Shown: in pieces, positions 12,301-38,391 of the stretch
Layout: each line of letters opens with the position of its first letter
How positions within the stretch are numbered: the stretch's first letter is position 1
From: a virus
Length of the DNA stretch: 64,000 nt
Reading direction: 5' to 3' (one strand)
IMG/VR virus record: IMGVR_UViG_3300018080_007253
Location: 356 to 64,355 of that record
The notes under the pieces: model-generated
The model's database searches: none
The model's input: only the letters and a program-made list of their open reading frames with translations
Told to the model about the DNA's origin: nothing
Made by a program: the position numbers and the translations under genes

Positions 12301-13625
12301 TTGAACAAGAGATTAAATTATATAGTCAAAACGCACAAAGAATAGATAAGCTATTGCCAGGGGTCGATTCTATGACCCAGGGGATATCTCAACAAACTGA
12401 CACAATGGAAAGAATTCATAATGTTTTAATGGGGCAAAATACTGCCGTTGAACTTCAAAAGGCAATGCAGCCATTTCAACAATTGATAGCCGAAATTGCA
12501 ACGCAGACGACAGGCGGTGAAACTGTTTCTGATCCTAACGCCTTAGCTAATCAGTTGAATGCATTAACAGTTGCTCCACTTAATGATGCCATAGGTCAGC
12601 ACAAAAAAAGTGTTGTAGAAGCGACTGGATATATAAATCAATTGCGTGAAATTTATAATAATGAAAATCTTAATGCACAACAAATGATAGAAAAGACAAA
12701 TGCAGTTATTGCTAAAGCAGATGCTATTCTTACGCAAGAAATAGCAGCAGCAACCGATGAACAAGTTGTAACACTTAAAGATGAAGAAATATTTAAGAAT
12801 TTTTCAAATGCGCTTGTTGATGGAATAGCTCTTTCGCAAGACACTAAAGAGGGACAAAAGAAAAATATGACAGAGGCCGTTAAGACAGGAAATGAAGAAA
12901 TTAAGAAAAATACAGAAAATAATATAAAACAACTTGAAAGTTTAAATATTACCAATAAGGATATTGTAGCTAAAACAATAGCTGTTGCAAAAACAGTTGT
13001 AGATGGTTTTAATACAAATGTAAAGACGTTAAGTAATGGCTTTAATCATGTTGCAAATGCCTTTGCAGATATTGTTGTAAAGGTACAGAGGGTTGTAACT
13101 GGGAATAAGGCACATGGTTTAACTGGATCAGAAGAAAGGGGGCTTTTGGCTGCAGCAAGAAGAGAAAAGCGCAAAATGCCACAGGGGGCGGGACTGACGG
13201 TTGCAAACACCTCTGAACTTGTAATGACACCTAAGCAAGCGAACAAAGTGTTTGGACAAGTGCAGATGCCAGAAGGCGTTAGAGATGTACAGAAACAGAT
13301 GTATACGACAAAAAGAAAAGAAATCATTAGAGAAAAAACAGATGGCACATCTAAAGATATTACAAAATTGACAAATAAAATTAATGATTTACTTGATCGT
13401 GCAGAAAAGAAGGAATTATTTAAAAATCAACAAGAGATTTCAATAAATGTTGATGGAAAGCGTGAAATAAGTCTCAAGGGCGTTAAGTCTTTCAAGAAAG
13501 AGCTTAAAGATACGTTTAAACAACAAATGTCAGGATTATCATCTAAGGCAGAACTCAATGCTGTACGTGGTACACTTGAGAAACTAATAAGAAGACTGAG
13601 GGAAACAGGTGTTGATGGAGTATAA
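6324..13625 (+). CDS. tail tape measure protein (TP901-family core)
   Basis: 2,433 aa, Ala/Lys/Glu-rich coiled coil, with the TP901-type block (ATAMENFARQG...DLADASAIDVVDLAQGFIRSAAAADAFGVSQEQLASAIATV...IGTAFKTIF) and a hydrophobic Ala/Gly segment. Confidence 0.92.
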   Translation: MAGEQLPLGIRFTARDVETANITSEVQKAINTAIANTDTKQLSKKFENAPITITTKLSKQAKGVIAKDVQSALNKVGIVFTDRNVKTKTLIEKVRRGVSNAISTVGTKTFGSRLYDAAVKVRNGINVALNSAKFSDLSKRLQQQLSKPVTVRVGKVESTKDAVIKLKGKIDGKTLGESVRALDGKYSVLIRAKVQGLREAVAQIQRQVGTTPTATGSAKQAQSAAKANQELAQSRRQATNAAISHTQATSKEANAQSINTKSARSQADALKQLRNDILPAEKGTKKLSSATVQLSNTQNKSAAAAKLMFQPFNKTRAMTDSLAKSFQEAGINAEILGTRIAQIAKRFSGFFIYTAALFKFLEAIRETTQAIKDLDRTAASLGKVLKELSEDDIDAVNQQLIEMAINTKRAYSEAATAMENFARQGLSTKDAMQATKGVLDLLNISTVDAATASKLIITTFNAFGGEMEEMTKTLATFSDLADASAIDVVDLAQGFIRSAAAADAFGVSQEQLASAIATVGGVTQMQATRIGTAFKTIFSYLGQNRKAVLELAASYRGINRTIGDLDNEFSTMHDTLRFVAEGWASFSKEQRSAIGQLVGGKRRFNELSALMQNFSKYQELYGQSLEESNAIQRKSEVESKTLAAAHRELSSSIVQLSKSFTDFGATDFYKNIISGLSSIIQLSSTALRSLDTISNFIAEASDETIAVGIDGKEIKIEINNAQKAFLGFVESATSGSNLLTNSFIYLFARVVLPFIGKATKSFKAFLTGNEKGLNKILAQQAGYTQEVANSISALSNEQQRLTGILQTEKQILQTRQQSSQVQAGGTTAKSVATQRGSEGAANFAAASKFVDSIKNTQGVVVGMSAAIKNAEAVSRGYGKALTNNTKVVSSNINSMKLLEYRRKALLSEVDRTSNIFQKLYVAVKNGLQIQKVENRAGIAAPKQGLAYTLPIFGKGLGDSFKKSLGGFKTSIGNIRKQMSGFGGQMIKMVAIMQGIQAIGGGFESLAEGFREDGDALKANAAELGASVAQSAAPLAAFGPAAALAGVAMGAFKHTVSEVSKALKANAALVNAEAKVRLENLNASELLAAAQDNYLLQTSLVERGLGEFVKNARTGAKEFNIISEEFGKLDGANIRVEETRGVATIKEDLNEVIRQATILSTKWNDNLETIEKMSDVIDIFKSSAEDITNAKIDLNIENTRELLGYASSDMGDLLKQINKVNSTDVKFLAVGGELGKFIDINREAGDVIDKLNSQFKKLQIGEITRSEFSDFYEMLNITTPEIEKYNKEIEAMEKRQVELQKSIKKIPDALGGADFSLTEEVSSYKDISNAQKDLTDEHKARVKEIQKLVDVTKESTNLSEEINKYEEKRKDLIEKTKKEQLENLLALKNIIAETEKRVQLANHNLKIQLAENALLGRNDNLIRQINGGLAENGTEISEGLSATIATRKELEKSAISIAKLTAARERQVKLLQENAGEIAVDFGAVDAITQQIDVEIKGRLRDQIANMIGTLGDKAAQETERISKLEKERFNIAKEQLEKLAEMERYRIEIAGEMTSSLIDSAKEMGASDIDISSLIDSSAITEQFAGINENIKDKLNNQAKVQLAHSLEQINIEEQKQKAILDAQMARANDEQRVALETKRAIIEKNFAEERSVEIMDALKKSSIDALQTIKGAAEEMRSSLDKMKNIRADILKQDKEIATLQAKIKYDEQIKGLQNYKSSLEDSLSTLSSFSNRVQAVERKNNALVDSLISSEKYLEDVADEVGGLKDLSSTLGITGARADVAKRSIGGIASTFANMPRKLGLFEDKIQELRINSAKETVNTLKEEYNKLKTYGEQLYAADYSKLYEMAAAQSAIENATGDLNEKLQKVPLFLRGAAAEYVKRQYGEEGGQAVAKAGLERVGLDSTKMESLEKQTVDAAKEAVKAQFRMVELQQNSINAASVHAEKIQSKISSVDEKITAVEETKNSVGNANQTLKEQLNDAKERKKLLQKQIEQEIKLYSQNAQRIDKLLPGVDSMTQGISQQTDTMERIHNVLMGQNTAVELQKAMQPFQQLIAEIATQTTGGETVSDPNALANQLNALTVAPLNDAIGQHKKSVVEATGYINQLREIYNNENLNAQQMIEKTNAVIAKADAILTQEIAAATDEQVVTLKDEEIFKNFSNALVDGIALSQDTKEGQKKNMTEAVKTGNEEIKKNTENNIKQLESLNITNKDIVAKTIAVAKTVVDGFNTNVKTLSNGFNHVANAFADIVVKVQRVVTGNKAHGLTGSEERGLLAAARREKRKMPQGAGLTVANTSELVMTPKQANKVFGQVQMPEGVRDVQKQMYTTKRKEIIREKTDGTSKDITKLTNKINDLLDRAEKKELFKNQQEISINVDGKREISLKGVKSFKKELKDTFKQQMSGLSSKAELNAVRGTLEKLIRRLRETGVDGV

Positions 13626-13627
13626 TT

Positions 13628-14935
13628 ATGGCTAAGATGTATTATGGAAACTATCGTTTTTTGCCAGCACCACTGATGAATTATTCTGTGGAGCATCAAT
13701 ACGATGACAATAACGATCTTCTATACAAAATTACTACATATGATTTGATTGGAACGCTTTTATTCCCAAGTGGTGACTTTACTACCATGATGGAAAAAAA
13801 ACAAGAGCTTGAAAGCGCTCTTGGTAGCGGCAATCAATTATTTTTAATAGAAAATGAAAACGGTGCCCCATTAGCATCTGGATATCCAACAGTAGATTCA
13901 TTTTCGATAGATGAAGGTGTTTGGGTAGATAGGATGAACTATAATGCAACTTTATCTATTGAAGAGTCGCTTTCTGCTAGTGGTGCAGTTGAGTCATTCT
14001 CTGAGTCGTGGAGTTTTGAGGAAAATGAAGATAGGGAAACAATATCTGTTACTCACAATGTTTCTGCTGTAGGAATTAATACAGAAGGACTGAATAATGC
14101 CACTGAAAATGCCAAAAATTATGCTTTAAGCAGGGTGGGCTATACACAAGTACCATCGTTTCTTCCGGCATTTACTGAGGGTTCTGGTACTTTATCGGCA
14201 TATTCTAGCTTTCGGTCGGAGAGCGTTAATACAGTTGATCACGAATATGAAATTCAAGAAACCTTTGTTTTGTCAGAACAAACATATACGCATGATAGCA
14301 GTGCGACATTTGCAAGCGATGAAAACGGTGTTATATCTGTTGAAATAGAGGGCACGATACAGGGGCTTGGGCGCGGCGTTTTGGCGATTAATCGTGCAAG
14401 GTATGGTTGGACACAAGTAGAGCCAAGCGTTATAGCAACAGCGTCTGGAGTCTATTTACGGTATGGTGGCACTGACGAATTGCCTGTATCGCCCGGATCA
14501 CAGAGCATAGCTGAAGATGTAGAGGCTGGCACAATAAACTATTCTTTTTCATATGAAGAAGTAGATCAGGTTTTACCGTCTGGAATAACCGATTTTACAA
14601 TGACAAAAGATATTTCCGAGCCGACTACACTTTATGCATCGCACACTATTGTAAATAAAGCAGATGGACCTGTTGTGCAGGATTTGGGCACCACATCTGA
14701 GGGAACTGTAACAATAAATGGGACAGCGACAAGGAAGAGCGACTATCCTTTGTCTGATCTTAAAACATATATAAGCAATAGAATATCTGCTGCTGCACCA
14801 TCAAGCTATTCTACAACATATCGTATTACTGAAGAAACGTATAATATAGATGAGACGAGCAAAACGATAGAGTTTTCCGTCACATGGACATTTACCGCAC
14901 CACTTGCCGGTGGGTTTTTGTCGTATTTAAGTTAG
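13628..14935 (+). CDS. putative distal tail/hub protein
   Basis: First gene after the TMP; acidic and beta-rich with repeated strand patterns; 7 SG dipeptides. Confidence 0.5.
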   Translation: MAKMYYGNYRFLPAPLMNYSVEHQYDDNNDLLYKITTYDLIGTLLFPSGDFTTMMEKKQELESALGSGNQLFLIENENGAPLASGYPTVDSFSIDEGVWVDRMNYNATLSIEESLSASGAVESFSESWSFEENEDRETISVTHNVSAVGINTEGLNNATENAKNYALSRVGYTQVPSFLPAFTEGSGTLSAYSSFRSESVNTVDHEYEIQETFVLSEQTYTHDSSATFASDENGVISVEIEGTIQGLGRGVLAINRARYGWTQVEPSVIATASGVYLRYGGTDELPVSPGSQSIAEDVEAGTINYSFSYEEVDQVLPSGITDFTMTKDISEPTTLYASHTIVNKADGPVVQDLGTTSEGTVTINGTATRKSDYPLSDLKTYISNRISAAAPSSYSTTYRITEETYNIDETSKTIEFSVTWTFTAPLAGGFLSYLS

Positions 14936-14944
14936 GAGTTTCGT

Positions 14945-15508
14945 ATGGACCCCGTTACACATTTTTCTGAGTTTAGCATAAATGCACCATCTCCAAGTGG
15001 AAATAGGCATAATAGTAGTGGTATAGCTTATGTTAAAGAAATTTCTATAAACCCTAATGAAAGTTTAGATTTTGGTACATTAAACAATAGCGATGGACAA
15101 GTGGTGGATTCAGAAACAAAGTGTGTTGTTTGGTGTGTTGATGATTTTAAAGATGCAACACAAAAAATATATGATATGAAATTTTGGTTGTCATCTATAG
15201 CTGGTTTTGTTGGTGAAGGAAGTGGTAATTATAATGTTTATTTTAATTGGCACACTAGTAACGAATGGATGGGAAGCGGAAATCCGACTTTAGTACACAC
15301 TAGTGGCAATTATGTCCCACGTTCATTGCCATCAGAACAAAACTTATATAAATACGACGGAAGTAGCAGCATAACAACTTCTGGTTCAGATGAGTCTGTT
15401 TCACAATATATATATTTGAGCACTAGTGTTGATCCAAATACTCCAAATGGGCAATATGGCGGGATGGATGGTGGCTTCAGATATCGTATAACATATAAAT
15501 ATTTGTAA
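14945..15508 (+). CDS. virion structural protein, paralog family A
   Basis: Shares LDFG...MK.W...LP..QN.Y..DG...SQYIY...FR.R.TY with 19811..20500 and 20513..21154. Confidence 0.55.
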   Translation: MDPVTHFSEFSINAPSPSGNRHNSSGIAYVKEISINPNESLDFGTLNNSDGQVVDSETKCVVWCVDDFKDATQKIYDMKFWLSSIAGFVGEGSGNYNVYFNWHTSNEWMGSGNPTLVHTSGNYVPRSLPSEQNLYKYDGSSSITTSGSDESVSQYIYLSTSVDPNTPNGQYGGMDGGFRYRITYKYL

Positions 15509-15519
15509 GGGACACTTTA

Positions 15520-17862
15520 ATGAGTAAGGACATAGGTAAGGTAGCAGCTTTTTTTACAGGATATAGATCTTATAATAATGCTAGGCTCTTTTTGGTTGGT
15601 CCAAGTGGTAACATTTGTAGATTGCCAGAGCCTTCTGGATTGGGATTTAAATATAATGACCAATATTTTGTTTCTAATTCATATTCTTTTCCTGAAAATA
15701 CGAACCTTGCTAGTGGTGAAATAGATAGTGTTTTTACATATTATAAATCTGATTATGCAGTTGGACATAAGGTTTTGTGTTGGCTTGGCAATGAATTAAT
15801 GATAACAATGGGAAATAGCGATGCTACTTATTTGTATAGTACATATAGAGGAAAAAGCTCTAGAGATATAAACTTTGTCTTTTGTCCATATGGCACCCCT
15901 GAAATAAAAGAAAATCCAAGTGGATTGATATATCCAGGAAATTATAAACATGGGGGGTACAATGGAAATCTGGCTTCTTATATTTTTCAAGATGGAACAT
16001 ATTATAGATTTCTTGGACATGCTAAATATCCTGCAATTGAGGGATGGGAAGATTATTATACAGGAACTCAGTTTAAAATTTATTCTGATAATATAGAGAG
16101 AATTGGAGAAAATTCTTTAATATTTTTAAATGAGTCTTGTCATATAATCACTCGTGAAGGATATGGAGTAGGGCATAGGCATAAAATATGTTATGATGCA
16201 CAAAAATTTAAACATTTTCCTACAGTTGGGGGGGTTCATACTGTTGATAGTGGATATGAGTCATACGCAGCCTCTGGGTTCGCTCCAATTTTATCGAAAA
16301 TAGATGGTAATAATGTTATTTCTTTTATAGATGACAGATATAGTACAGAGCCATATAATCCATTATTTACAGTAGTAAACAAGTGTAATTTATATGGAGA
16401 ACATAATCTTCATAACATAGACAATGTTGAATGTCAGCCATCTATTGCAGAATTTGCTTATTACAGATATAAAGGATTATATCATGATATTGATGTAAAA
16501 TATTTTAATGGATTGATATATGTTGCTAAACCTGGGGGGATAAGTATTTTTAGTCCGAATGCAGAAAGTGCAGCACACAATTATGTAGAGAGGAATTATT
16601 TAAATGATGATGATTACAGGTTAAATTATAGAAAATTAATTCCATTTAAAAATAGAATGCTGTCACTTGAAACAAATGGAAAGCTATATGAAATACATAA
16701 TAGTGGCATTAGTGAGTTATATGATTTTTCAAATTTGCTGAATGAAAACGAGACATTTATTGATGGATATGGAGTTAATCAGTATGACGACAGTGTATCT
16801 ATTAATGGATACCTTAGGGCAGGGATGTGTTATGGGGCTGAACTTGGAGATAAATTAGAGGTATTTTTAAATTATGAAGATGGAAATAAATGTGGTGTTT
16901 TTTGGGGTGAATCTACAGATATAGATTCTGACTCAACATATTCTAATTTAACATCTTTATTGCCACAAAGTGGAATAATACCACCATCTGGAATGTCAGA
17001 GTCTGGATATTTAGCTATAATAAGTCCATATAAATATTCTGGATATAATGGTATTCCATTGGCATCTGGAAAAACGGCGCTAACTGAATGTAGGCCTTCT
17101 GGATGGACACAGATTGGGAGTGGTGATATAGTGTTGTGGGGTGGGTCTGGAACTTTTTATAATAATGACTATGGAATAGATCCTTCTGGATGGGATGTTC
17201 CAATGTATTATAATAATCGTAATTATTTTTTAAGTCCAACTGAAGTCATAATTCCTGTTTCTGGAATGAGTAGACATTCGCCATCTGGTGGGATCGCAGA
17301 AAGCGGGTTGCGCTGGACTGGTGTAAAAAGATATAATATTATGGGATATAAAGATGAGGACAATGAAGAATTGCATTTGTTTTTTGGTGGCGCAAATAGT
17401 GGAGTGTCGCAAGAGCCATTGTTATATTATACATTAAATTCAAGTGGTAATTGGACATTTAAAAATGAAACAAAGACTGGAAAATTATTTGATGTAGAAC
17501 TAACAGATATGTTTGAACCATCTATTCTCATTCCTTCTGGATCAATACAAAAAAGATATCCATATTATGATTACGAAGATGATGTTGTATATCAACCCAT
17601 TAAAATATTCAATTGGCCAACTTTTGAGAATGTGGATATTGAAGCAGAATATACAATCGACAAAAGTTCAACATGGAATGTAGCAACTGTTAATGCTACA
17701 TACTCTGATTCAATGACAAATATTGATACTGGGGATTTATCTACTGATCCGTCTGGAGTCAACGGAGTTTCAGTTATGTTTGCTTGGGACTATATCTCTG
17801 ATATTGGAACATCTTTTATCCCATGGGCACAATTAAGGTTTAGGGCGGTTACACATGAATAA
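15520..17862 (+). CDS. large tail-associated protein, paralog family B, SG-rich
   Basis: 780 aa, Tyr/Gly/Ser-rich, 23 SG by manual count; C-terminal domain shared with 17855..19801. Confidence 0.55.
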   Translation: MSKDIGKVAAFFTGYRSYNNARLFLVGPSGNICRLPEPSGLGFKYNDQYFVSNSYSFPENTNLASGEIDSVFTYYKSDYAVGHKVLCWLGNELMITMGNSDATYLYSTYRGKSSRDINFVFCPYGTPEIKENPSGLIYPGNYKHGGYNGNLASYIFQDGTYYRFLGHAKYPAIEGWEDYYTGTQFKIYSDNIERIGENSLIFLNESCHIITREGYGVGHRHKICYDAQKFKHFPTVGGVHTVDSGYESYAASGFAPILSKIDGNNVISFIDDRYSTEPYNPLFTVVNKCNLYGEHNLHNIDNVECQPSIAEFAYYRYKGLYHDIDVKYFNGLIYVAKPGGISIFSPNAESAAHNYVERNYLNDDDYRLNYRKLIPFKNRMLSLETNGKLYEIHNSGISELYDFSNLLNENETFIDGYGVNQYDDSVSINGYLRAGMCYGAELGDKLEVFLNYEDGNKCGVFWGESTDIDSDSTYSNLTSLLPQSGIIPPSGMSESGYLAIISPYKYSGYNGIPLASGKTALTECRPSGWTQIGSGDIVLWGGSGTFYNNDYGIDPSGWDVPMYYNNRNYFLSPTEVIIPVSGMSRHSPSGGIAESGLRWTGVKRYNIMGYKDEDNEELHLFFGGANSGVSQEPLLYYTLNSSGNWTFKNETKTGKLFDVELTDMFEPSILIPSGSIQKRYPYYDYEDDVVYQPIKIFNWPTFENVDIEAEYTIDKSSTWNVATVNATYSDSMTNIDTGDLSTDPSGVNGVSVMFAWDYISDIGTSFIPWAQLRFRAVTHE

Positions 17863-19801
17863 GTGGATAACACAAATTGCATCTAAATATGCGTATCTTG
17901 GTGACAAATATATATACAGTTCTCCATCCATTAGATCTGATCATCATCAATTTTACAATATAGACAATAATAAAATAGGCAATTGGAGAATTGGTTCTGG
18001 GGATGGTTGTTTGGAAAACGGAAGGGGTGTTGTTCGTCCAGAAAGTTATTTAAATGACAAGAGTTTTACTGCATTTGGTTACAACTTATATTCTGTTTGG
18101 TGTACTACTATTGATAATAATGAAGCAGAGCTACAATTTATGGAAACAGATTTTCGTTTAGATAATATTAATAAAAACTATAAAAAAATTCCGTCTAAGG
18201 AAATATATAGTCTGATATTTGAAAGTGGGGTAGAAAGTATACACTCAAGCGGAGAATATGCATCTTCACCTAATTTTTTAAGATGGATTGGGTATTCTCC
18301 AATTGTAATGAATTATAAAGGAGGAGTGCTAGTTCTTGGCTGTTTTAATAGTGCACCTAGTTTTACAGAGGGAGAATTTACACAAAGTAGTGGAATGATA
18401 CCAATGGATATTAAAAGTGTCCAATTTAGTGATACTAGATTTATTGATTTAGGCTCTGGGTTTTATGGGCACAACTATAAAAATTATGATAATTTGGTTG
18501 ATCCAGATACATTTCAAGACCATTTTTTTTATCAAAGCTATTGGTATAGTCCGCCCATTGGCGAGCAAAGTGGTGTTTTCATTATTAATAATAGTGGACT
18601 GCCGATAGAAGTTAGAGGTGCTGGATATAGTGGAACAAGTTTTTGGGAAAATACACGAAGAGATTTATATGCGGATGCAATACAGCCAACTGGTGGTGGA
18701 TTAAATTGGCATACTGATTTTTATGATGCATTTGAAAATGTTTTAGGAATGACAGATGCAATTGAGTATAAAGATAGTATTATCTGTGCAAATTCAATTG
18801 ATGTGGTGTCATTAAATGGAGACGATTTGAACAGATGGGAAAGGATACACACTTCTACCACTAACAATTATTATGCAACCTCTCCAAAATGGTTTGCAGT
18901 ATATGACAGTAATTTATATATGTATGAGGGAGATGGATGGCTATCACAAATTAATTATTCAAATGGTAATTTTGATAGATCAACAGTATATGACCTTAGT
19001 TATATCCCAGAAGTTAATGGAGATAATTGTGCATATGGAAATATGCGCTCTAGGGAAGATGGGCGAGAAAGGGCAGTCAAATCTGCTATTATTGCATTTA
19101 ATGACTATTTGCATATTTTTATTGGTGGAGAAAACAGAATTTATCATGTGAAGACAGACAATCCATCTTCTGCAACTTATCACACAAACTTATCTGATGA
19201 TTTGCCAGATATAATGAAGAATCATACTGGCAATATAACAGTAAGAAAAGATCCAGATAGTGGAAATCTTATATTGCTATTTACAATAATGGGGAAAGAT
19301 CAAACCTTGGGGCTTTTAGGCTGGATAACACACGGAAATTCAGTTGGAGGAACAAGATATTTATTTGAATATGATGGAAGCACATGGACCGAAATTGGAT
19401 GGTATCCATTTGGAACAGTAGCGGGCGGTGGATTAATGGCATATAACATTGATGGCGCTAATGCGGCTTGTAGCGGAGCATATGACAATGGATTTAGTGT
19501 AACGCCAGATTGTTATATATGCAACGATTATGTATTGTTAGATTATACTATTATTGATCGTTATAGTAGAAATTGGGATGCATATATAAAGTATTCTTTA
19601 GATTACGGTGAGACATGGAGCACATGTAGACGACAAAAAGACCGTATATATAGAAATTATTTGGGAGATCCGACTATTGATATTAGTGGCTCTCCTTCAG
19701 GAGAAAAATATACTTTTTATTGGGACTATGTTACAGACGTTGGATATACAACTTCTGATAGAGACATAAAGTTGAAAGTTACGCTGACACCACACGAATA
19801 A
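17855..19801 (+). CDS. large tail-associated protein, paralog family B
   Basis: 648 aa with propeller-like aromatic repeats; shares the C-terminal domain (Y..D...TW...PSG....F.WDY..D.G...L......HE). Confidence 0.55.
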   Translation: MNKWITQIASKYAYLGDKYIYSSPSIRSDHHQFYNIDNNKIGNWRIGSGDGCLENGRGVVRPESYLNDKSFTAFGYNLYSVWCTTIDNNEAELQFMETDFRLDNINKNYKKIPSKEIYSLIFESGVESIHSSGEYASSPNFLRWIGYSPIVMNYKGGVLVLGCFNSAPSFTEGEFTQSSGMIPMDIKSVQFSDTRFIDLGSGFYGHNYKNYDNLVDPDTFQDHFFYQSYWYSPPIGEQSGVFIINNSGLPIEVRGAGYSGTSFWENTRRDLYADAIQPTGGGLNWHTDFYDAFENVLGMTDAIEYKDSIICANSIDVVSLNGDDLNRWERIHTSTTNNYYATSPKWFAVYDSNLYMYEGDGWLSQINYSNGNFDRSTVYDLSYIPEVNGDNCAYGNMRSREDGRERAVKSAIIAFNDYLHIFIGGENRIYHVKTDNPSSATYHTNLSDDLPDIMKNHTGNITVRKDPDSGNLILLFTIMGKDQTLGLLGWITHGNSVGGTRYLFEYDGSTWTEIGWYPFGTVAGGGLMAYNIDGANAACSGAYDNGFSVTPDCYICNDYVLLDYTIIDRYSRNWDAYIKYSLDYGETWSTCRRQKDRIYRNYLGDPTIDISGSPSGEKYTFYWDYVTDVGYTTSDRDIKLKVTLTPHE

Positions 19802-19810
19802 GGATGTATA

Positions 19811-20500
19811 ATGAGTAGAAAAGGAATATATAGATACGCTGCACCGATTACTCTTAACAGTAGTGGTTTTTATGAGGCTGAAACTGATTATTTTAATATT
19901 CCTGAATTTAATATTGTACCAGAAATTGTTTGGTGGGATTTAAATAGTTCTGATCCTATAGGGCATAGGCACGAAAATACACATGAGGCATTTGTAGCAA
20001 TTGTTGGAAGTGGAAGAGAAACGATAGATGAATATTTAACAAGATTCAATTTTAATGATGTTGATATAGGTTCTGGAGTTGGAATAAGTGAACCACGCTG
20101 TATGAATATGAGGATTGCTTCTAAAGAATGTGAAACTGCTAGATTAACACAGATGAGATTATGGGTGCAAGATGATTCTGATTTTTTGGGTAAAAATTAT
20201 AGGATTGTATGGGATAAAGATACAGAGTGGTTGCCAAATAAAAGATTCCATATAAAAGATGCGTTCCCAGTTTCTTCTGAAAAAAATTATTTGCCAACAT
20301 CAGATCCAGGTACTCAGAAAATTTTTGCGCAAGATGGAGGTGTTTCAATTCACGGAAGCGGGGACACTGCTTGTAGTGAATATATTTATTTAGCTTTGGC
20401 TGTTTCTGGAAATGTTATTCCAGGGGAGTATGGCGCTATTCCATCTTCTGGATTTAAATTAAGGATGTCATATTCGTTTGATAATTTTTATCGTGAATAA
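19811..20500 (+). CDS. virion structural protein, paralog family A
   Basis: QMRLW...EW...LP...Q.IF.QDG..SI.GSGD...SEYIY...GEYG...FKLRMSY pattern. Confidence 0.55.
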   Translation: MSRKGIYRYAAPITLNSSGFYEAETDYFNIPEFNIVPEIVWWDLNSSDPIGHRHENTHEAFVAIVGSGRETIDEYLTRFNFNDVDIGSGVGISEPRCMNMRIASKECETARLTQMRLWVQDDSDFLGKNYRIVWDKDTEWLPNKRFHIKDAFPVSSEKNYLPTSDPGTQKIFAQDGGVSIHGSGDTACSEYIYLALAVSGNVIPGEYGAIPSSGFKLRMSYSFDNFYRE

Positions 20501-20512
20501 AAAGAGGAAATA

Positions 20513-21154
20513 ATGGTAGAAAGTGGTTTTTATACATTTGGTGTAGTTGGAGATTTGCGTCCTAAAATAACTTGTATTCAATATCCAACCTTTCTTCAAG
20601 AAAATCCAAAAGAATGGGACTTAGTTTTTTCTTCTGGTAATTCATTGGGGGAAAAGGGGGGGTGTCTTGGATTAAGTGGTTATAATAGTGGAGTATTGGA
20701 CTATGGTGAAATTGTTTGTGAAAACTCAGAAACTGTTTCTTCTGATACAATTGTTTTTGTATTCAGACCAAAGTATAGTGCGACATCCGGTGTATGGAAT
20801 GAAGCACAAATTTTTAATATGAAATTATGGGTTGATGACTATGGCGATATGAGTGGCATCAATCCATATATTCAAATGTTAGCCACAAGCGGATGGTATC
20901 AAAATGTTGACATAGGAAGTGGGGAAATGGGAGCTATAGAAATTCCTTATGTTTTACCATCTGGACAGAATATATATAGAAAAGATGGACACTATGCGCT
21001 TGTCGGTACATCTAATTCACAAATTACACAGAACATATATTCTAATATTATTTTATCATCTGGCTTATATGACATTGGTATTAAAAATTTTAGATTAAGA
21101 TTTACTTATGATTGGACAGCAAGTAGTGCAAATGTGGCAAGTGGAGACTTTTAA
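20513..21154 (+). CDS. virion structural protein, paralog family A
   Basis: LDYG...NMKLW...LPSGQNIYRKDG...FRLRFTY; 11 SG in 213 aa. Confidence 0.55.
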   Translation: MVESGFYTFGVVGDLRPKITCIQYPTFLQENPKEWDLVFSSGNSLGEKGGCLGLSGYNSGVLDYGEIVCENSETVSSDTIVFVFRPKYSATSGVWNEAQIFNMKLWVDDYGDMSGINPYIQMLATSGWYQNVDIGSGEMGAIEIPYVLPSGQNIYRKDGHYALVGTSNSQITQNIYSNIILSSGLYDIGIKNFRLRFTYDWTASSANVASGDF

Positions 21155-21155
21155 T

Positions 21156-21602
21156 ATGAACGATAAAAATTTTTGGGTAAAAAGAATTGATAATAATATT
21201 GATCTTTTGCATGTAAATATTTTTTGTTCAATTGATAATATATATAAAGTATATAAAATTGAAATTCCAAGTGGAAAACGCCCATTTATTTCACATACTG
21301 CAACAATGGGAATGGTAGAGGCGATTGGTAACATAAAAAATAGTAATATAGCTACAGCATATTATTTAGGAAATCCAAAATATGAATTTAAAGTAAATAA
21401 TATTTATGGATACAAAAAAGGAGAAAGAGTTATTGTTAGTGAGCATATTAGATTAGATGGTAAAATTGAATATTTAGTATCTAAAAATAGACTATTGCAA
21501 GGTAATTTGAATTTTGTTAATATTGGGCATTACAATGAAAAGAATGATGGAATTATTAAAATGATTGTTGATGTGATTACTGGTGAACATAAGGTCTTAT
21601 AA
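21156..21602 (+). CDS. hypothetical protein
   Basis: ATG at 21156 sits just after the upstream TAA. The basic 148-aa ORF fills the gap in the operon; no recognisable motif. Confidence 0.5.
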   Translation: MNDKNFWVKRIDNNIDLLHVNIFCSIDNIYKVYKIEIPSGKRPFISHTATMGMVEAIGNIKNSNIATAYYLGNPKYEFKVNNIYGYKKGERVIVSEHIRLDGKIEYLVSKNRLLQGNLNFVNIGHYNEKNDGIIKMIVDVITGEHKVL

Positions 21603-21617
21603 AATAAGAGATAAACA

Positions 21618-22439
21618 ATGGTAGCTTCTGGTGTAAAAAAAATTGGTGGTTTTTTATTTTCTGTAAATCCGATTGAAACATATGTTGACTCTTTGAATAG
21701 AGCTCTTGTAAAGGTTGGAACAGAGATAATTAATGATCAAGAATACAAAATAGACGGAGCAGTTTATTTATTGAGGCAAACAAATAGCGACTTCTATTCT
21801 GAAGTAACAGTCATAAAAGATAGCAGTGATTCTTTTAACAGTGTTATTAAGATAGAAAAAGGGCCTCGTAAAAATCCTTATGTTGAAATTATCTCTCAGA
21901 GTGCACAAAGTGGAGCGGTTAATCAGAACTTTAGCATTACTGCATCTGGATATGCTTTTAATGAAAATGGAAACAGAGTCAACGATGGTATTTCAAGCGT
22001 TATTTTTAACTGGACAGATGGCGACTATGATGTTATAGAGTCGAGCGGAGACTCATGGACACTTTCTCATAGCTATAGTCATAGTGGGCTGTATAAACCG
22101 TATGTGGCTGTAAAAGATCATTATGGACGAGTAGGTGGTGACATTACATCATTTAGTACGGCATCTGGAATTTCAAATATGCCAATAATATCTCTATCTG
22201 GTATACCAAGGAGCGTGATTGCAAACACCTTAAGTGTAGATTTTTATGCTGATCTTGCTGATGTTTTAGGAGATTATACATTATATTGGGATTATGGGAA
22301 TGGGTTTAGTTATTATAATAATACTGTTGATACAACTACCCAATATAATTTCCCTGGTGATTATATTCCATACATTAGAGTTATAGACGGCAGGGGAGTT
22401 TATGTTTGTGATTCTTTAAAGATAGGATACAATAGATAA
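21618..22439 (+). CDS. PKD-domain virion protein
   Basis: Two PKD-like modules (FNWTDGD...SHSYSHSGLYKP.V.V.D and YWDYGNG...YNFPGDY.P...V.D). Confidence 0.7.
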   Translation: MVASGVKKIGGFLFSVNPIETYVDSLNRALVKVGTEIINDQEYKIDGAVYLLRQTNSDFYSEVTVIKDSSDSFNSVIKIEKGPRKNPYVEIISQSAQSGAVNQNFSITASGYAFNENGNRVNDGISSVIFNWTDGDYDVIESSGDSWTLSHSYSHSGLYKPYVAVKDHYGRVGGDITSFSTASGISNMPIISLSGIPRSVIANTLSVDFYADLADVLGDYTLYWDYGNGFSYYNNTVDTTTQYNFPGDYIPYIRVIDGRGVYVCDSLKIGYNR

Positions 22440-25111
22440 TGGCTTCAGACAATTTTCCTTACGATTATTTTAAAGGAATACATCCTACTCCAGAGTTTGA
22501 AAATCCACATGGCGATTTTCCATGGTGGAACATATCTTGGAAATATAGGCGATTTATATTAGAACCACACAATGATGCTGGTGGCTATTATGATTATGGT
22601 AATAATTTAGTTCGTGCGTCTGGACGAACTCCAGTAATGCTATGGGTTTATCTTGATAAATATGTTGCAGAAGGAAAAGTAAACGATGACTATAGTGATG
22701 TAAGAATTATTTTTCAGTCTGGTGTATCAAATCCTAAATATTTTAATGTTCCATATTATATTGCGTCTGGATTATCACCACAAAAAATATATTTTTTTAT
22801 GCAAAACGATGTTTATGATGCCAATCCTGTTCTTCAGTTGCACGATGGCGGGGATGGATGGGCATATTATTTATATTACGGAAATGATTCGACTCCAGAC
22901 ACAGAAAAACCAGAAAAATATATAAATTTTAATAATCCACTTGCTCCATTTCATGTTCAAAAAGAATGGACATCAATTCCTGGACATCCAGAAAGCGGAC
23001 ATCGTGACTTAATGTTTTATAGACTTAATGACGATCCATCTACAATGGGAAATGGTCCAAAAGATGAAACTGGGAACACCTATGCAATAAGTGGATGCAA
23101 TGGAGATGCTTGTACATTGGCTTTTGGTGTAAGTGGATATTTGGACTCGGCAGTTTTTTTCGATGGAACAGTTAATAATTTTATAGATATATTTGGTAAT
23201 AATTCAAATGTGGCACATTATCCTAGCTCAATGTTTGTTTTGGATTTTTGGTATGCTGATCCTGATCCATATAGAAAAATGGGAACATCTATGACAGTTA
23301 CAGATGGAATGGGATATCAAGGGTATCATCCGCAATCTGGAATGGGGTCTGACATTATTATTGATAGAAGCGGATTTTTGACAGTTACATCTATTGAAGA
23401 TGCGTCAAATTTTCTTGATGATGTTGACCCGATACGCTGCGCGGTAAGTGGACAGCTTCAAGTTGGGACTGGCGTGGGGGATTTTTTAGAAGCTTATGAT
23501 CCATTAACCGATCATGTTCCAACAAACGGTGATACTCAAATATTTGCAGATGTTGCAAGCGATTGGTATACTTATGAACAAGCCAATATGTTTTGGATGC
23601 CAGACATATCAGAATTGTTGTGGCGCTTTGTGCGATTTTGTTATCGTGGAGATTCTACAGCGGCATCATCTGTTTTTTCTTTATATGACAATTATGATAG
23701 AACTTTGATAAATGATAATGGTAATTTTGATGATTCTATAAATGATATATATAAAAATGGAAAGTTTACAATTGGACAAAATGCTTCTCATAATAATAAT
23801 GTTCCATTTAAGGGAATAATAGAACAGGTGCGACTTTCGACATTTCCATTAGATCAAATAGATGATCCGAATAGTTCGATATGGTTACCAACAAAAGAAA
23901 TAGCAACAAAAGATAAAAGGTTGTATTGCTTTCCAAGTGGTGGAGAAGAATCAATATCTATTAGTGAAGCATCGGGAGAAATTGGAGGTTGTGTTAGTAC
24001 AGAAGAAGGTATTGTTACTGCTGACGCCCGCGAATTTGGTGGCTATATATATACAAATATTTTTTCTTCTGGCTTTATGTTGGGTGGATATTTTTATAGT
24101 CTTCCTGGAGAAATACAGGATGCCTTGGGTGGTGGGATTTATGGTGAGTCTCCTATGGTATATCAATCTGGACATTTTGGCGGCGCGGTAAATGTATTTA
24201 AGGTTGATACAATAGCAACAATTGGTGGATTTTTTAATCCAAGCCCTGAATTTATATGGAAAAAAGAAAAATTTGGTGGCTATATGTTTACAAATGAAAC
24301 AATAGCTCCAAACAAAATAGGTGGTCATTCACTAGGTACATGGGAAGGTAGAAATGATATTTATGTAGACTCACTTTGCAGAACTCTTGTTGAGATGAAT
24401 AGTGACTCTACACACAAACAAGGATATAACATTGATAGTAAATTAAAAATATATAAAATTTGCAACAATGATTTTAATTCAAAGATAAATGTATCTAGAA
24501 AAGATTACAGCGTTTTTAATGCAGAAGCAACTGTTATAAATTTAAGAAAAAATCCATATGTAAAGATTATTTCCTCTGGTATTGATGGATTGTCGTTAGA
24601 GCTAACGGCTTCTGGCTATATGTTCAACAAAAACGATGAAATGGTTGACAATGGTATAAATAGAGCATATTGTAGATGGAGCGATGGTAATATTTCAATT
24701 CTTGAGAATGCGCAAGAAAGCGGCTCTATTTTTAAATTTTCTCATGACTATAGTTTTAGTGGAATATATTCACCAATAGTTACTTTGGTTGATATAAATG
24801 GAAGAGTTGGTTCAGATTATATAAGAGTTGATATGACAAGCAGTGGAACAGATGTGCCAAGGATATCTCTTAGTGGAGAGCCAAGGAGTGGATATGACCA
24901 ATTAGATGTTGATTTTTCTGTAGATATAAATAATACTATTGGTGCATATAATTTATATTGGGATTTTGCAAATGGTTTGACGTATTATAATAATAGTGAG
25001 GATATGGTTACATCTTATAATATGCCAGGGAATTATATTCCATATGTTATGTTAAAAGATGAAAGGGGTATTGTTGTTACAGACACACTTTTGTTAGGGT
25101 ATAATAGATAA
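22439..25111 (+). CDS. DUF2341 + LamG/ConA-like + tandem PKD tail protein (possible receptor-binding protein)
   Basis: WKYRR...GKVNDDYSDVRI...YYLYYGN (DUF2341-like); YRLND...FDGT...FTIGQ...FKGIIEQVRLS (LamG-like); C-terminal PKD pair. Confidence 0.7.
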   Translation: MASDNFPYDYFKGIHPTPEFENPHGDFPWWNISWKYRRFILEPHNDAGGYYDYGNNLVRASGRTPVMLWVYLDKYVAEGKVNDDYSDVRIIFQSGVSNPKYFNVPYYIASGLSPQKIYFFMQNDVYDANPVLQLHDGGDGWAYYLYYGNDSTPDTEKPEKYINFNNPLAPFHVQKEWTSIPGHPESGHRDLMFYRLNDDPSTMGNGPKDETGNTYAISGCNGDACTLAFGVSGYLDSAVFFDGTVNNFIDIFGNNSNVAHYPSSMFVLDFWYADPDPYRKMGTSMTVTDGMGYQGYHPQSGMGSDIIIDRSGFLTVTSIEDASNFLDDVDPIRCAVSGQLQVGTGVGDFLEAYDPLTDHVPTNGDTQIFADVASDWYTYEQANMFWMPDISELLWRFVRFCYRGDSTAASSVFSLYDNYDRTLINDNGNFDDSINDIYKNGKFTIGQNASHNNNVPFKGIIEQVRLSTFPLDQIDDPNSSIWLPTKEIATKDKRLYCFPSGGEESISISEASGEIGGCVSTEEGIVTADAREFGGYIYTNIFSSGFMLGGYFYSLPGEIQDALGGGIYGESPMVYQSGHFGGAVNVFKVDTIATIGGFFNPSPEFIWKKEKFGGYMFTNETIAPNKIGGHSLGTWEGRNDIYVDSLCRTLVEMNSDSTHKQGYNIDSKLKIYKICNNDFNSKINVSRKDYSVFNAEATVINLRKNPYVKIISSGIDGLSLELTASGYMFNKNDEMVDNGINRAYCRWSDGNISILENAQESGSIFKFSHDYSFSGIYSPIVTLVDINGRVGSDYIRVDMTSSGTDVPRISLSGEPRSGYDQLDVDFSVDINNTIGAYNLYWDFANGLTYYNNSEDMVTSYNMPGNYIPYVMLKDERGIVVTDTLLLGYNR

Positions 25112-25137
25112 ATAAGGAATAAGGAAAGGAATAAAAA

Positions 25138-28100
25138 ATGGGTTCTCCATATATTTATGTTTCTGGCGTAATGGACGACAGTCTTTATTTTAATGACAAT
25201 AGTCATATTGATATTGATCTTGGTATTCCAGATAATTTTGGACAGATTTGGTTGTCTTCAATTGAAACTTCTTTTGGATTTAACGATAGTCCACACACGC
25301 TTAATCTAGAAATTGTTGCTAAAAATCAATTACCAAATAGAGATATTGTTGGCAATAATTGTGTTTTTCAAATAGGTGAACTTTTGTTTAATGGCCATAT
25401 CGTTCATGTTGACAATAGTGTCGGTTCTAATGGATTTATAACAAGAATACAGTGTGAAGATGGCAGAAAAATAGAATTAAATAAATATTTGATACACACA
25501 GAATCTCTTTTGCAAAATAATTTAAATAATGTAATAATTGTTCCAAAGGTTTTAAACACCAGGGGCAATCTTCATAAAAAATATTCTCCACTATGGTTAA
25601 TGAACAGATATGGTGCTACTTATTCAGAAATATATAATGCTGCCACATCTGAAGGTGTTGTTGGGCTGCCATCTCCATCAATAATTAATAACAAACTGGG
25701 AGATTATGAAGGATATAGATGGCAATTTAGTATGACGCCGCTTTTTAGCGCCTTATTACAAATATTTGATGATTGCGGTTATGATCTTTATTATTATGGG
25801 AATGAAATTAGAATAATAGATAGAAGCAAAACAATTCGTGTTGACACCTCTTTTTTAGATGATTACTATAAAACAGAGGTTAGGGAAGGTTATGATTTAA
25901 CAAGTAGCCCCACACGTCATTCTGTATTGGGAGCAAAAAAACAAGGTAGTGTTGGAACTATAGATTTTTGTGAATATCATAATGAAATTTCATTAGGGAA
26001 AAATTCTTTCACTCCTGCGTGGAATGATATACAAATTCAATATCATAATCAAGATGGTATATTAAATTCATATTATCCTACAGATGACGAATTAAGAATG
26101 GCATTAAAAGGAATAGAATTTTGGATATATTATAAGCTTGAAGAGGGCATACATGTTGAAGAGGGATGGATGGAGTCACGTTTAAATCCTGCAGTATATG
26201 GAATAAATGATAATTTAGCAATGCTTTCTGCTGGAGGCGGACGTTCAGATGTTATTAAGGCTATACAAAATAGAAGATCAGAAGCTGCTAATTGGTTGGT
26301 TACATGGTATGATGCAGTGTCAAATCATGCACGAAGATATTATGGTAAATTATATTCATGTATTCCTGGAGAAAGCTTTTTGCGTAATTGTAACATAGTA
26401 GACTCAGCGTGGATAGCGGACAATGTTGATAATATGACAATCCCCTTAGAATATTCTCCATTTTATGACGATGGTAAAATCAGAGCCTTTATGCAAATTT
26501 CAACAGACGATGTTATTGGATATGGACTTAAGGGAACGGATGTTCCAGCAAGCTTTGTAGAATGGAACGAAATGGATGGTAATGCCTATATTCCAATACA
26601 GGCATCTATTTATAGTCCGAGCGATGATAGTCAGCGCATTCCAGGAATGACAGAGCAGCGAGTTTTGTTAAGGCTGCCGAATATAATTGTTACTGATATA
26701 TATGTACATGAATTGTTAGAAAATTTGTCTACACTAGATTATTTTGATGGTGGCACATTAAACGCCAGTGGTATTTCTGATCAATTCCAACTATATGTAA
26801 CAGCTAAAGATAAGGAAAATCCAAGATTGACGATTCAGCCGTTACAATCTATAGACAATTTTTTAATTCCTGTTGAATATAATATTAGATATGGGGATAG
26901 TGGCGATACAACCTACGGGACAACAAATGGCGAGTATGCTGTAGAAATAAATGATAAATATGCACCATGGACAAAAGAAAATCCGAGCGATCCTACAAGT
27001 CAAATGTTGCATAGAGCACAAGAAATGATATCTAGTAGTGGATCAGTAGATTTTTATGAAGCAACTGTTGTCGGTTTGCCGTCTGTAAATTATTTTAGCG
27101 ATTTTGCTGATAGAAACGGCGAAGCAGTCTATCCATTTACATCTATGAATGTTAGAATCGGTGGAGATGGTTTAACCACACAATATGCCGTTAAAACACA
27201 ACTGAAAGAATTAATACGTGATAACAAAATAGATTATTCTAGATGGAAATCTAGATTAAATCATATTCAACACTATAGTAATTTAGATAAATTAATGACA
27301 AATTTGAATCTTATAATGCCGGGCTTATCGCAAGGAATTATAGATGATTTGACAAAAGACAATTGGAATATGTTTCAAACAGCAACAAATAATAAAGAAG
27401 AAGAAGAAAATGTTCCAGAAGACAAAAGCTATACGAAAATGGTTAAAATTGTGGATGTTGCATCAGCCAATATTACTGATCCAAATGGTGCAGAAACGCA
27501 AGTTGTTGTGGAATTTTATACCGGACAGGATGATAACGGAAATGTTTACCCCTTTTCTTGGAAAAATTTTTATAGAACTATAGGAGAAGATGTTTTTACA
27601 GAAAATAAAGAAGTGGATATAGTTAATTTTGGTGAAACCACCACTAGAAGAAGAATGATGTCTGAAGGATATTGTATGTGTACCGATGGGTATTTGCGCC
27701 CTGGAATGTCTGCGATGTTTCATCACGAGGAAATAGAAGGAACAGTTTTTGAGTATTTTACTGGAGGAGTTCAGTTAGAGTCTGCCCGTGTGGTTGAAAT
27801 AGCAAACGATGTAGAGCAGATCGGTGATTATTATTGTGCAGATGTCAAGACTGTCTCTCATATAGCTGATACAGCATCTTTCAATTTTTATAAAGTTCCA
27901 TTTTTAAATAACACACAAGCTGGGATGCAATCTTATAAGGTAGGAGACAAAGTACAGATAGTTCATAATAGGGCAACAAAAGGTGGCTCATCTACCTCTT
28001 CTGACAGTGATTTTGATGTTTTTGATGAAGGAACGCTACGTCCAGAAAGCACGCATATTAAAGACGATGAGCCGGTAAATGACTTATATATAGAAAATCC

Positions 28101-28362
28101 AAAAACTATAAATCCTATGTTTGTTACTGTTGTTACGCCGCCACTTGCGGATGGCACAGGTGGAAAAGTTGCAAAAGCAGATGATCCAACACAAACATAT
28201 GAAGAATTTCCATCTGAAAATGGTGAAATGCAAGATTTATTATGGATTGGATGCCCCTATGATGCAATATATGAGGGTGATTATGGAATTTTAACACAGG
28301 GAAAAGAAGGATGGTATGTTTTGATCCAGAAACCACTGTTTACTGCATATAGTCAGGAGTAA
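25138..28362 (+). CDS. putative tail tip/baseplate hub (central tail) protein
   Basis: 1,074 aa. The N-terminal SFGFNDSPHTLNLEIV...FQIGELLFNG and RIIDRSK patterns resemble gp27/Tal-like hubs; position in the tail operon agrees. Confidence 0.55.
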   Translation: MGSPYIYVSGVMDDSLYFNDNSHIDIDLGIPDNFGQIWLSSIETSFGFNDSPHTLNLEIVAKNQLPNRDIVGNNCVFQIGELLFNGHIVHVDNSVGSNGFITRIQCEDGRKIELNKYLIHTESLLQNNLNNVIIVPKVLNTRGNLHKKYSPLWLMNRYGATYSEIYNAATSEGVVGLPSPSIINNKLGDYEGYRWQFSMTPLFSALLQIFDDCGYDLYYYGNEIRIIDRSKTIRVDTSFLDDYYKTEVREGYDLTSSPTRHSVLGAKKQGSVGTIDFCEYHNEISLGKNSFTPAWNDIQIQYHNQDGILNSYYPTDDELRMALKGIEFWIYYKLEEGIHVEEGWMESRLNPAVYGINDNLAMLSAGGGRSDVIKAIQNRRSEAANWLVTWYDAVSNHARRYYGKLYSCIPGESFLRNCNIVDSAWIADNVDNMTIPLEYSPFYDDGKIRAFMQISTDDVIGYGLKGTDVPASFVEWNEMDGNAYIPIQASIYSPSDDSQRIPGMTEQRVLLRLPNIIVTDIYVHELLENLSTLDYFDGGTLNASGISDQFQLYVTAKDKENPRLTIQPLQSIDNFLIPVEYNIRYGDSGDTTYGTTNGEYAVEINDKYAPWTKENPSDPTSQMLHRAQEMISSSGSVDFYEATVVGLPSVNYFSDFADRNGEAVYPFTSMNVRIGGDGLTTQYAVKTQLKELIRDNKIDYSRWKSRLNHIQHYSNLDKLMTNLNLIMPGLSQGIIDDLTKDNWNMFQTATNNKEEEENVPEDKSYTKMVKIVDVASANITDPNGAETQVVVEFYTGQDDNGNVYPFSWKNFYRTIGEDVFTENKEVDIVNFGETTTRRRMMSEGYCMCTDGYLRPGMSAMFHHEEIEGTVFEYFTGGVQLESARVVEIANDVEQIGDYYCADVKTVSHIADTASFNFYKVPFLNNTQAGMQSYKVGDKVQIVHNRATKGGSSTSSDSDFDVFDEGTLRPESTHIKDDEPVNDLYIENPKTINPMFVTVVTPPLADGTGGKVAKADDPTQTYEEFPSENGEMQDLLWIGCPYDAIYEGDYGILTQGKEGWYVLIQKPLFTAYSQE

Positions 28363-28369
28363 AATATTT

Positions 28370-30211: not shown

Positions 30212-30226
30212 AAAAGGGGAGTTAAA

Positions 30227-33789: not shown

Positions 33790-33791
33790 TG

Positions 33792-36674: not shown

Positions 36675-36689
36675 CTTTGTCTCCTTCTA

Positions 36690-38390: not shown

Positions 38391-38391
38391 T

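Follow-up and report, generated by a model that had tools for sequence, protein, structure and literature searches.

The proteoglycan xylosyltransferases XT-I/II, which belong to family GT14, act on Ser-Gly within disordered stretches that have acidic flanks. Soluble cytoplasmic glycosyltransferases (GTs) such as GmaR, the O-linked N-acetylglucosamine (GlcNAc) transferase of Listeria flagellin, and AAH/TibC act on serines in beta-rich proteins or in proteins of surface filaments before these are exported or assembled, and the acceptors of glycocins are Ser or Cys beside Gly in a loop. To our knowledge, the acceptor rules of GmaR and AAH/TibC are not Ser-Gly, mycobacteriophages are the only phages in which glycosylation of virions by phage enzymes has been shown, and an acceptor rule has yet to be established for phages of any kind. 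Here we describe an excess of the dipeptide Ser-Gly (SG) in the virion proteins of a phage tail operon, encoded on a 64,000-nucleotide stretch of viral DNA (IMG/VR record IMGVR_UViG_3300018080_007253, positions 356 to 64,355; the window, below). An earlier note on the window had proposed SG as a candidate modification sequon.

In mycobacteriophages, phage-encoded GTs are thought to work in the cytoplasm on virion proteins of the same phage, and it is the C-termini of the capsid and tail tube subunits that bear the glycans (Freeman et al. 2023, as cited in PMC12619734). The window resembles that system in that phage GTs are conserved alongside the structural genes. It differs in that the candidate sites are SG turns dispersed over tail-tip, baseplate and head-accessory proteins, with none in the major capsid protein (MCP), and in its far larger GT set, to which a UDP-xylose synthase (UXS) belongs. 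With XT-I/II the window shares the use of Ser, not Thr, before Gly (the ratio of observed to expected counts, O/E, is 0.48 for Thr-Gly) and a UXS homologue for the supply of UDP-xylose. In contrast to XT-I/II acceptors, the SG sites lie in folded beta-domains, with Pro or Ala at position -1. The earlier note's analogy with the proteoglycan enzymes fails on two points: the context of the sites is hydrophobic, not acidic, and no GT14-type xylosyltransferase was found in the Pfam-scanned open reading frames (ORFs), which held GT2, GT4/GT1, GT9 and Glyco_trans_1_2 domains only, some small ORFs of the window lying outside the scan.

Ser-Gly excess in the tail operon

Every ORF of the window of at least 100 amino acids (aa) was translated and its dipeptides were counted. 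ORFs are named by their lower coordinate, and G001 is a complete relative described below. The TMP gene and the genes that follow it are listed here.

6324..13625, plus strand: tape measure protein (TMP) of 2,433 aa, 5 SG and 5 GS, none of the 5 SG conserved; internal control
13628..14935, plus strand: 435-aa orphan directly 3' of the TMP; 7 SG, O/E 1.8; 7/7 conserved in the G001 orthologue
14945..15508, plus strand: 187-aa SG-rich protein; 6 SG, O/E 2.3; weak paralogue of ORFs 19811 and 20513
15520..17862, plus strand: 780-aa tail protein; 23 SG, O/E 3.2; C-terminal beta-propeller-like domain with an Asp-box-like motif
17855..19801, plus strand: 648-aa SG-rich protein; 12 SG, O/E 2.2; two domain segments common to the 780-aa family
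19811..20500, plus strand: 229-aa SG-rich protein; 6 SG, O/E 3.6; 4-5 of 6 SG conserved at 31-49% identity
20513..21154, plus strand: 213-aa protein; 11 SG, O/E 4.2, the highest SG density; Ser precedes 46% of its Gly
21618..22439, plus strand: 273-aa tandem Ig-like/PKD protein; 7 SG, 7/7 conserved in G001
22439..25111, plus strand: 890-aa SG-rich protein; 20 SG, O/E 2.7
25138..30211, plus strand: two large orphan ORFs (25138 and 28370) of 1,074 and 613 aa, with 4 and 0 SG
30227..30874, plus strand: 215-aa SG-rich protein closing the operon; 7 SG, O/E 3.0

In the seven ORFs 14945, 15520, 17855, 19811, 20513, 21618 and 22439 (3,220 aa pooled), SG occurs 85 times and GS 18 times, with 10 of the 18 GS lying inside GSG. 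The expectation from 20,000 within-protein shuffles is 29.8 +/- 4.9 SG, with a maximum of 50 (z = 11.2). After correction for the composition of each protein, 100 SG were observed against 36.4 expected in ten ORFs (13628-25111 and 30227; O/E 2.75). Among the 400 dipeptides SG deviates most by far in these ORFs and PS comes next (O/E 2.08), while GS, TG and AG are depleted (O/E 0.63, 0.48 and 0.47) and NG and DG are neutral (O/E 1.01 and 1.04). Since NG and DG are neutral, a generic preference for X-Gly turns is ruled out, and so is avoidance of deamidation by the replacement of NG and DG, as neither is depleted. All SG and GS counts of the earlier note were reproduced exactly, including those of ORF 13628 (7 in 435 aa), ORF 30227 (7 in 215 aa) and the tail tube protein (5 in 404 aa), and with them its observations that the GS minority lies mostly in GSG and that there is a dense SG patch, which falls at residues 484-556 of ORF 15520; the excess that it described survives the composition correction.

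The signal is confined to the reading frame: AGTGG occurs 41, 2 and 1 times in frames 0, 1 and 2, and TCTGG 44, 0 and 1 times. AGT, AGC and TCT are all in use as Ser codons at SG sites, and only TCA-GGN is avoided. An in-frame signal carried by two Ser codon families must arise at the protein level, as the earlier note had argued, and a nucleotide-level motif is ruled out. As a separate observation, TCA-GGN and TCG-GGN pairs are nearly missing at the SG sites of positions 13628-30874 (TCA at 1 of 99 sites vs 22% of other serines); their scarcity would avoid intragenic AGG/AGGA strings that resemble Shine-Dalgarno sequences.

Repeats and paralogy are also ruled out as the source. The SG sites are not made up of repeats and their contexts are diverse, and BLASTP among the window ORFs links only 14945/19811/20513 and 21618/22439. 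The C-terminal ~270 aa of ORF 22439 are the tandem PKD-like module of ORF 21618 (40% identity, SG aligned at 6 of 7 sites), and a hidden Markov model (HMM) of the 780-aa family matches only ORF 17855 among the plus-strand ORFs of the window. With so few links, at least six families among which no similarity was detected carry the excess. Apart from the Ig-like/PKD and beta-propeller folds, the SG-rich ORFs of the window are orphans; searches of Pfam and PHROGs with all of them yielded nothing beyond one weak PKD match in ORF 21618 (25.6 bits vs a cut-off of 23.5). ESM Atlas look-ups for ORFs 20513 and 28370 returned just unnamed viral clusters or low-confidence models. The N-termini of ORFs 20513, 21618 and 30227 read Met-[Val/Ala]-[Glu/Ala]-Ser-Gly, which looks like a common motif.

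The controls named in the earlier note behave as it described. O/E is 0.45 for the TMP and 0.69 for ORF 25138 (4 SG vs 5.8 expected), DnaE has 2 SG, and ORF 28370 has none. The minus-strand ORFs reach an overall O/E of ~1, the non-virion ORFs of the window genome 1.02, and the tail tube protein a ratio of 1.7, which is not significant. ORFs 25138 and 28370 belong to the same operon and are similar in composition, yet place Asn, Asp or Glu before Gly: Ser precedes 0-5% of their glycines vs 20-46% in the SG-rich ORFs. The bias is therefore a property of certain proteins only, and a genome-wide amino-acid bias is ruled out by these two ORFs together with the non-virion ORFs. The G001 orthologue of ORF 25138 is 50% identical.

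Outside this phage, the pooled virion proteins of lambda and T4 have O/E values of 1.24 for SG and 0.99 for GS, with no per-protein z above 2.9. The corresponding SG value is 1.14 in three unrelated large phage contigs (316 ORFs) and ~1.1-1.4 in ~350 ORFs surrounding distant GT homologues, where outliers are few. One 1,178-aa ORF without a Pfam match, from an unrelated phage with a GT9 homologue only (G006:C1:53986-57522, minus strand; L083:13986-17522), has 41 SG vs 18 expected, in Ile/Phe-x-Ser-Gly contexts.

Conservation of the SG serines

The alignment of the 780-aa family holds 20 orthologues with 22-37% identity over its full length, every one of which has an SG O/E of 2.0-3.3. SG is present in all aligned sequences at query positions 484, 490, 527, 543, 673 and 745, and also at positions 29 (18/18), 415 (19/20) and 507 (17/20); SG pairs account for ~15 of the 37 invariant columns. 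The mean conservation of SG serines is 0.58, with 8 of 20 invariant, while that of other serines is 0.16 and none of 42 reaches 0.8 (P-value = 8e-5, Mann-Whitney test). Both codon families, AGY and TCN, are found at 3 of 7 invariant SG sites. D, N, G, T and A take the place of Ser in the variable SG columns.

The window was compared with G001 and G002 in two pairings, reciprocal-best and one-way best-hit, between which the SG figure for G002 differs. The proportions conserved were as follows.

SG in SG-rich proteins, reciprocal-best: 57% (G001), 50% (G002)
Other X-Gly pairs in the same SG-rich proteins, reciprocal-best: 21% (G001), 19% (G002)
SG in non-virion proteins at similar identity, reciprocal-best: 14% (G001), 24% (G002)
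SG in SG-rich proteins, one-way best-hit: 57% (G001), 42% (G002)
DG and NG in the same SG-rich proteins, one-way best-hit: 24% (G001), 11% (G002)

In the one-way pairing SG was significantly better conserved than DG and NG (P-value = 1.6e-4 for G001 and 4.8e-5 for G002, Fisher test), and virion SG was better conserved than non-virion SG in G001 (P-value = 7.5e-5, Fisher test). Where Gly is retained, an Asp-Gly or Asn-Gly of the window is often Ser-Gly in the relative; the reverse is almost never seen (0 of 67 in G001). Because SG outlasts both DG/NG and the SG of non-virion proteins, the constraint acts on Ser itself, and in virion proteins only.

Site context and predicted structure

Of the 99 SG sites, 58% have a hydrophobic residue at position -3 (Ile at 24 sites) and 52% have one just after Gly. 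Position -1 is Pro or Ala at 16 sites each and Gln at 7; Lys and Trp never occur there and Asp is rare (enrichment 4.0x for P, 3.5x for A, 1.2x for E and 0.3x for D). The consensus context is hydrophobic-x-[P/A/Q]-S-G-hydrophobic, with no acidic flank. Established turn statistics give such a [P/A]-S-G pattern for the type I turn with a G1 bulge (3:5 beta-hairpin), and the turn position before Gly is filled interchangeably by D, N, S or T in ordinary families. The sites of the window are like this turn in their x-[P/A]-[S]-G-x arrangement between two strands and in the exchange of variable columns with D, N, T and G. They differ from it in that Ser is fixed far above the conservation of D/N-Gly, and in virion proteins only, exchange being limited to the non-conserved sites.

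The AlphaFold model of the 780-aa protein has a pLDDT of 62.5 overall and of ~70-90 for residues 370-780. Its C-terminal domain is beta-propeller-like, the Foldseek matches being propellers with low TM-scores, and 10 of the 13 SG sites in confident regions fall in coil adjoining strands. The C-terminal ~270-aa module common to ORF 21618, ORF 22439 and six relatives is modelled as a tandem Ig-like/PKD pair (pLDDT 80-90), for which Foldseek found the PKD of SorCS2, RbmA, FnIII pairs and lambda J. Four of its six mapped SG sites (98, 143, 156 and 183) lie in loops. Where the phage module has an invariant Ser before a conserved Gly, collagenase PKD domains have Lys or Ala. Most SG pairs are thus predicted to sit at tight beta-turns, mostly in inter-strand loops. 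The mapping of SG to loops proposed in the earlier note agrees with the confident parts of both models for most sites, the exceptions including two of the six PKD sites, which are placed in strands.

Distribution among relatives

The record that contains the window is 69,947 bp long and estimated to be 46% complete, and the same phage is also present on a 144,462-bp metagenome contig. The layout is of siphovirus type, with the TMP followed by the SG-rich ORFs and, on the opposite strand, UXS, GTs, DNA methyltransferases, and nucleotide-metabolism and replication genes. For the 780-aa protein, more than 20 orthologues came out of an exhaustive HMMER search. A scan of IMG/VR with a single protein as query gave no relatives, whereas the alignment-based scan did recover them; a word-indexed protein search returned self-matches or one relative only, and the 780-aa protein, the MCP and the GT polyprotein had no tblastn match among cultured phages. 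The relatives used were the following.

G001: IMG/VR relative, 150,882 bp, complete, GC 46%
G002: IMG/VR relative, 168,570 bp, terminal repeats
G003 and G004: further IMG/VR relatives
L089 (GC 52%) and L093: metagenome-contig relatives

In all relatives the TMP is not enriched and the ORFs 3' of it are, with an SG O/E of 1.8-5.2, and the excess persists over relatives spanning GC 33-52%. In the whole genomes of G001 and G002, SG is the top dipeptide of the virion block (O/E 2.2, z ~11), and across three genomes the block reaches 1.9-2.2 (z 7-11) vs 0.85-1.23 elsewhere. At the place matching ORF 30227, G001, G002 and G004 carry SG-rich ORFs of comparable size. The SG excess is a deep trait of the lineage, present in every relative found and restricted to the virion block; the lineage consists of large uncultured siphoviruses of ~145-170 kb.

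Among the head genes on the long contig, four ORFs 3' of the MCP are SG-enriched (155 aa with 4 SG; 551 aa with 11 SG, P-value = 5e-4; 123 aa with 5 SG; 95 aa with 3 SG). The 547-aa protein preceding the cement-like protein has no SG, and the partial ORF at the start of the locus has one. Upstream of the window, a 495-aa protein with 81 Ser (L001:8214-9701) is not enriched (O/E 1.26) and matches large PHROG families of unknown function.

A relative of ORF 19811 with 49% identity (P0026, contigs L091-L093) is filed under the metagenome-assembled genome Candidatus Makaraimicrobium thalassicum (Omnitrophota). The Candidatus Makaraimicrobium contig carries the same phage tail operon, which is either a hint of the host or a mis-binned phage contig. 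Two proteins with the PKD-like C-terminal module on L093 (11819-14059 and 15543-18038) also bear lectin-like Laminin_G_3 domains.

Glycosyltransferase genes beside the operon

The sugar-nucleotide and GT genes of the window are listed below.

31510..32532, minus strand: homologue of UDP-glucuronate decarboxylase (UXS); human UXS1 matched at E 8e-67, the next family at 6e-29
32863..34377, minus strand: Glyco_trans_1_2 (CgeB-like) GT; kept in G001-G004
36690..38516, minus strand: GT2-GT9 fusion GT; kept in G001-G003
43402..48105, minus strand: 1,567-aa GT4(+intein)-DUF4214-GT9-GT2 polyprotein; 46-57% identical in G001-G004

The three GT genes encode six GT domains in total. The cluster lies directly 3' of the tail operon in the window and in G001, G002, G003 and G004, at 43-57% identity, and UXS is kept in both complete genomes, G001 and G002. 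A fragment resembling UDP-glucose dehydrogenase was found in G001 only, so UDP-glucuronate would mostly be derived from the host.

GmaR is known to transfer GlcNAc onto flagellin by its N-terminal GT domain (PMC9638930). The C-terminal GT2 domain of the polyprotein (PF13704, 35.4 bits vs a cut-off of 27.5) is GmaR-like, its sole sequence relative in the PDB being GmaR (E 2e-6 with the single sequence, 4.5e-9 with a four-sequence profile); unlike GmaR, the polyprotein has no TPR domain and carries a DUF4214 module instead. The phage shares GT9 domains, of which it has two, with the AAH/TibC enzymes, but these match WaaF (1PSW) and the GT9 protein 3TOV in the PDB and not TibC. For ORF 36690, the GT9 part matches WaaF, and the sole GT2 sequence match in the PDB is weak (E 7e-4) and falls on SunS, a glycocin S-/O-glycosyltransferase; the phage substrates would, however, be large folded virion proteins and not small bacteriocins.

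Comparison with phages that lack this cluster, proposed in the earlier note, was possible in part: lambda, T4 and G005-G007 have no such cluster and show no general SG excess, and no relative without the GT cluster was found, the contigs of the most distant orthologues being too short. As G005-G007 carry a GT9 homologue only, GT9 alone is no predictor of the excess. An enzyme of the ThyA/hydroxymethylase family is absent from the complete genome G001, which makes glycosylation of hydroxymethylpyrimidines in DNA, and this DNA chemistry only, unlikely as the conserved role of the cluster.

Several further features of this region were observed. Residues ~79-453 of the polyprotein (43402-48105, minus strand) form an intein (Intein_splicing and Hint in Pfam) within the first GT domain, and the 1,215-aa orthologue in G001 is without it. 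In G002 (C1:103322-105439; L007/L008) the UXS homologue lies in a 718-aa frame whose halves are split by an insertion, probably another intein. Among the GT genes at 34353-42548 (minus strand) there are three Dam-like (D12 class) methyltransferases, one N4/N6 methylase, an enzyme of the GMP reductase/IMPDH family and a phosphoribosyltransferase-like ORF.

Interpretation of the SG sites

We tentatively favour the reading that the conserved SG sites at beta-turns are acceptors of O-glycosylation. The serine would be retained as acceptor on beta-rich tail-tip, baseplate and head-accessory proteins, and glycosylation would be the work, inside the infected cell, of soluble GTs encoded by the phage, namely the CgeB-like GT, the GT2-GT9 fusion and the GT4-DUF4214-GT9-GT2 polyprotein, with one donor sugar supplied via the phage UXS. 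The Gly after Ser would be needed to give the enzyme access to a serine at the tip of a hairpin. Sugar attachment, the GT that starts the chain and the identity of the glycan are what we infer. This reading is preferred because it accounts at once for the asymmetry of Ser over Asp/Asn, the confinement of the effect to virion proteins, the lack of bias in two ORFs of the operon, the occurrence in unrelated folds and the co-conserved GT cluster. That xylose is attached directly to Ser, by analogy with proteoglycans, is much less certain, because the acidic context and the GT14 enzyme are both missing. A fuller version, in which a proteoglycan-like glycan on tail and head-accessory proteins would be started by a phage GT on the SG serine, with UDP-xylose as one donor, and extended by five further GT domains, seems unlikely.

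Several observations weigh against glycosylation. In their invariance, many SG sites look more like structural residues than like the sequons of a glycan shield, the MCP-like protein encoded ten kb upstream on the long contig has no SG, and the Laminin_G_3 domains on L093, which are only assumed to be exposed, show no enrichment, unlike the remainder of each protein; the acceptor reading must accept all three. The SG context also fits the canonical hairpin of a type I turn with a G1 bulge, so that neither the position of SG nor its context needs a modification as explanation. Sites 110 and 194 of the PKD model lie inside strands, and 'A-S-G' and 'S-G-x-P' coincide with what we take to be ordinary PKD positions. 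The unrelated G006 ORF attains an SG O/E of 2.2. The homology of the GTs to protein-modifying enzymes is weak (E 2e-6 to 7e-4 for single sequences), and since no relative without GTs was found, the co-occurrence has no negative control inside the lineage.

Most of these points suit a purely structural explanation, in which SG is the lineage's preferred type I turn with a G1 bulge or beta-bulge in Ig-like, PKD-like and propeller domains, and Ser caps the turn unmodified. We regard it as a real possibility. [P/A]-S-G with hydrophobic flanks is the classical 3:5 hairpin, most SG sites are in loops adjoining strands, and the residues that replace Ser in variable columns (D, N, G, T, A) are the usual ones there; the PKD positions, presumably ordinary, the many invariant sites, the unenriched MCP and lectin-like domains, and the O/E of 2.2 in an unrelated phage ORF all fit as well. 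The structural explanation gives, however, no reason why Ser should be kept 2-4x better than Asp or Asn before Gly in the same proteins, why D/N-Gly drifts to S-Gly without the reverse, or why non-virion SG shows no special conservation. It also leaves unexplained that two ORFs of the same operon and of similar composition use N/D-Gly, and that a bias common to at least six dissimilar families is missing in the virion proteins of lambda and T4. The large, highly conserved GT/UXS cluster beside the tail operon is left without a role, unless it acts elsewhere, for example on the host surface, on DNA or at other sites of virion proteins. None of the three checks that the earlier note had set as refuting conditions (composition correction, comparison with relatives lacking GTs, position of the serines) went against its reading. 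For the sequon proposed in the earlier note, then, the Ser-specific and virion-only conservation speaks in favour, while the match to turns and PKD positions and the SG-free MCP keep the structural explanation in play.

Another virion-specific chemistry of Ser, unrelated to the GT genes (phosphorylation, acylation, an ester cross-link, or contact with a ligand or ion), would fit the Ser- and virion-specific conservation, from which it follows only that the residue's hydroxyl or its small size is important. The window yielded no candidate enzyme for a different modification, however, the conserved modifying enzymes beside the operon being GTs and DNA methyltransferases only, and we consider such a chemistry improbable. 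An artefact of composition, nucleotides or repeats is extremely unlikely: the proteins are Ser- and Gly-rich and some are paralogous, but the excess survives per-protein shuffling (z = 11), appears in frame only and with two Ser codon families, is not borne by repeats and persists from GC 33% to 52%.

Implications

If the serines prove unmodified, a strong, directional, virion-specific dipeptide signal can stem from turn architecture alone, which would be a warning not to take signals of this kind for sequons. A dispersed Ser-Gly turn sequon, together with UXS and a six-domain GT set, would be new relative to the virion glycosylation of mycobacteriophages, and the proteoglycan-like glycan, if true, would make it the first defined O-glycosylation sequon of a phage virion and a convergent counterpart of the Ser-Gly xylosylation site of animals. 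If SG turns are acceptors, they would provide a sequence signature that predicts glycosylated virions straight from metagenomes, and the many large GT clusters found in uncultured phages would gain a role. A glycan coat at the receptor-binding end of the tail would then bear on adsorption, on stability and on recognition by immune and defence systems.

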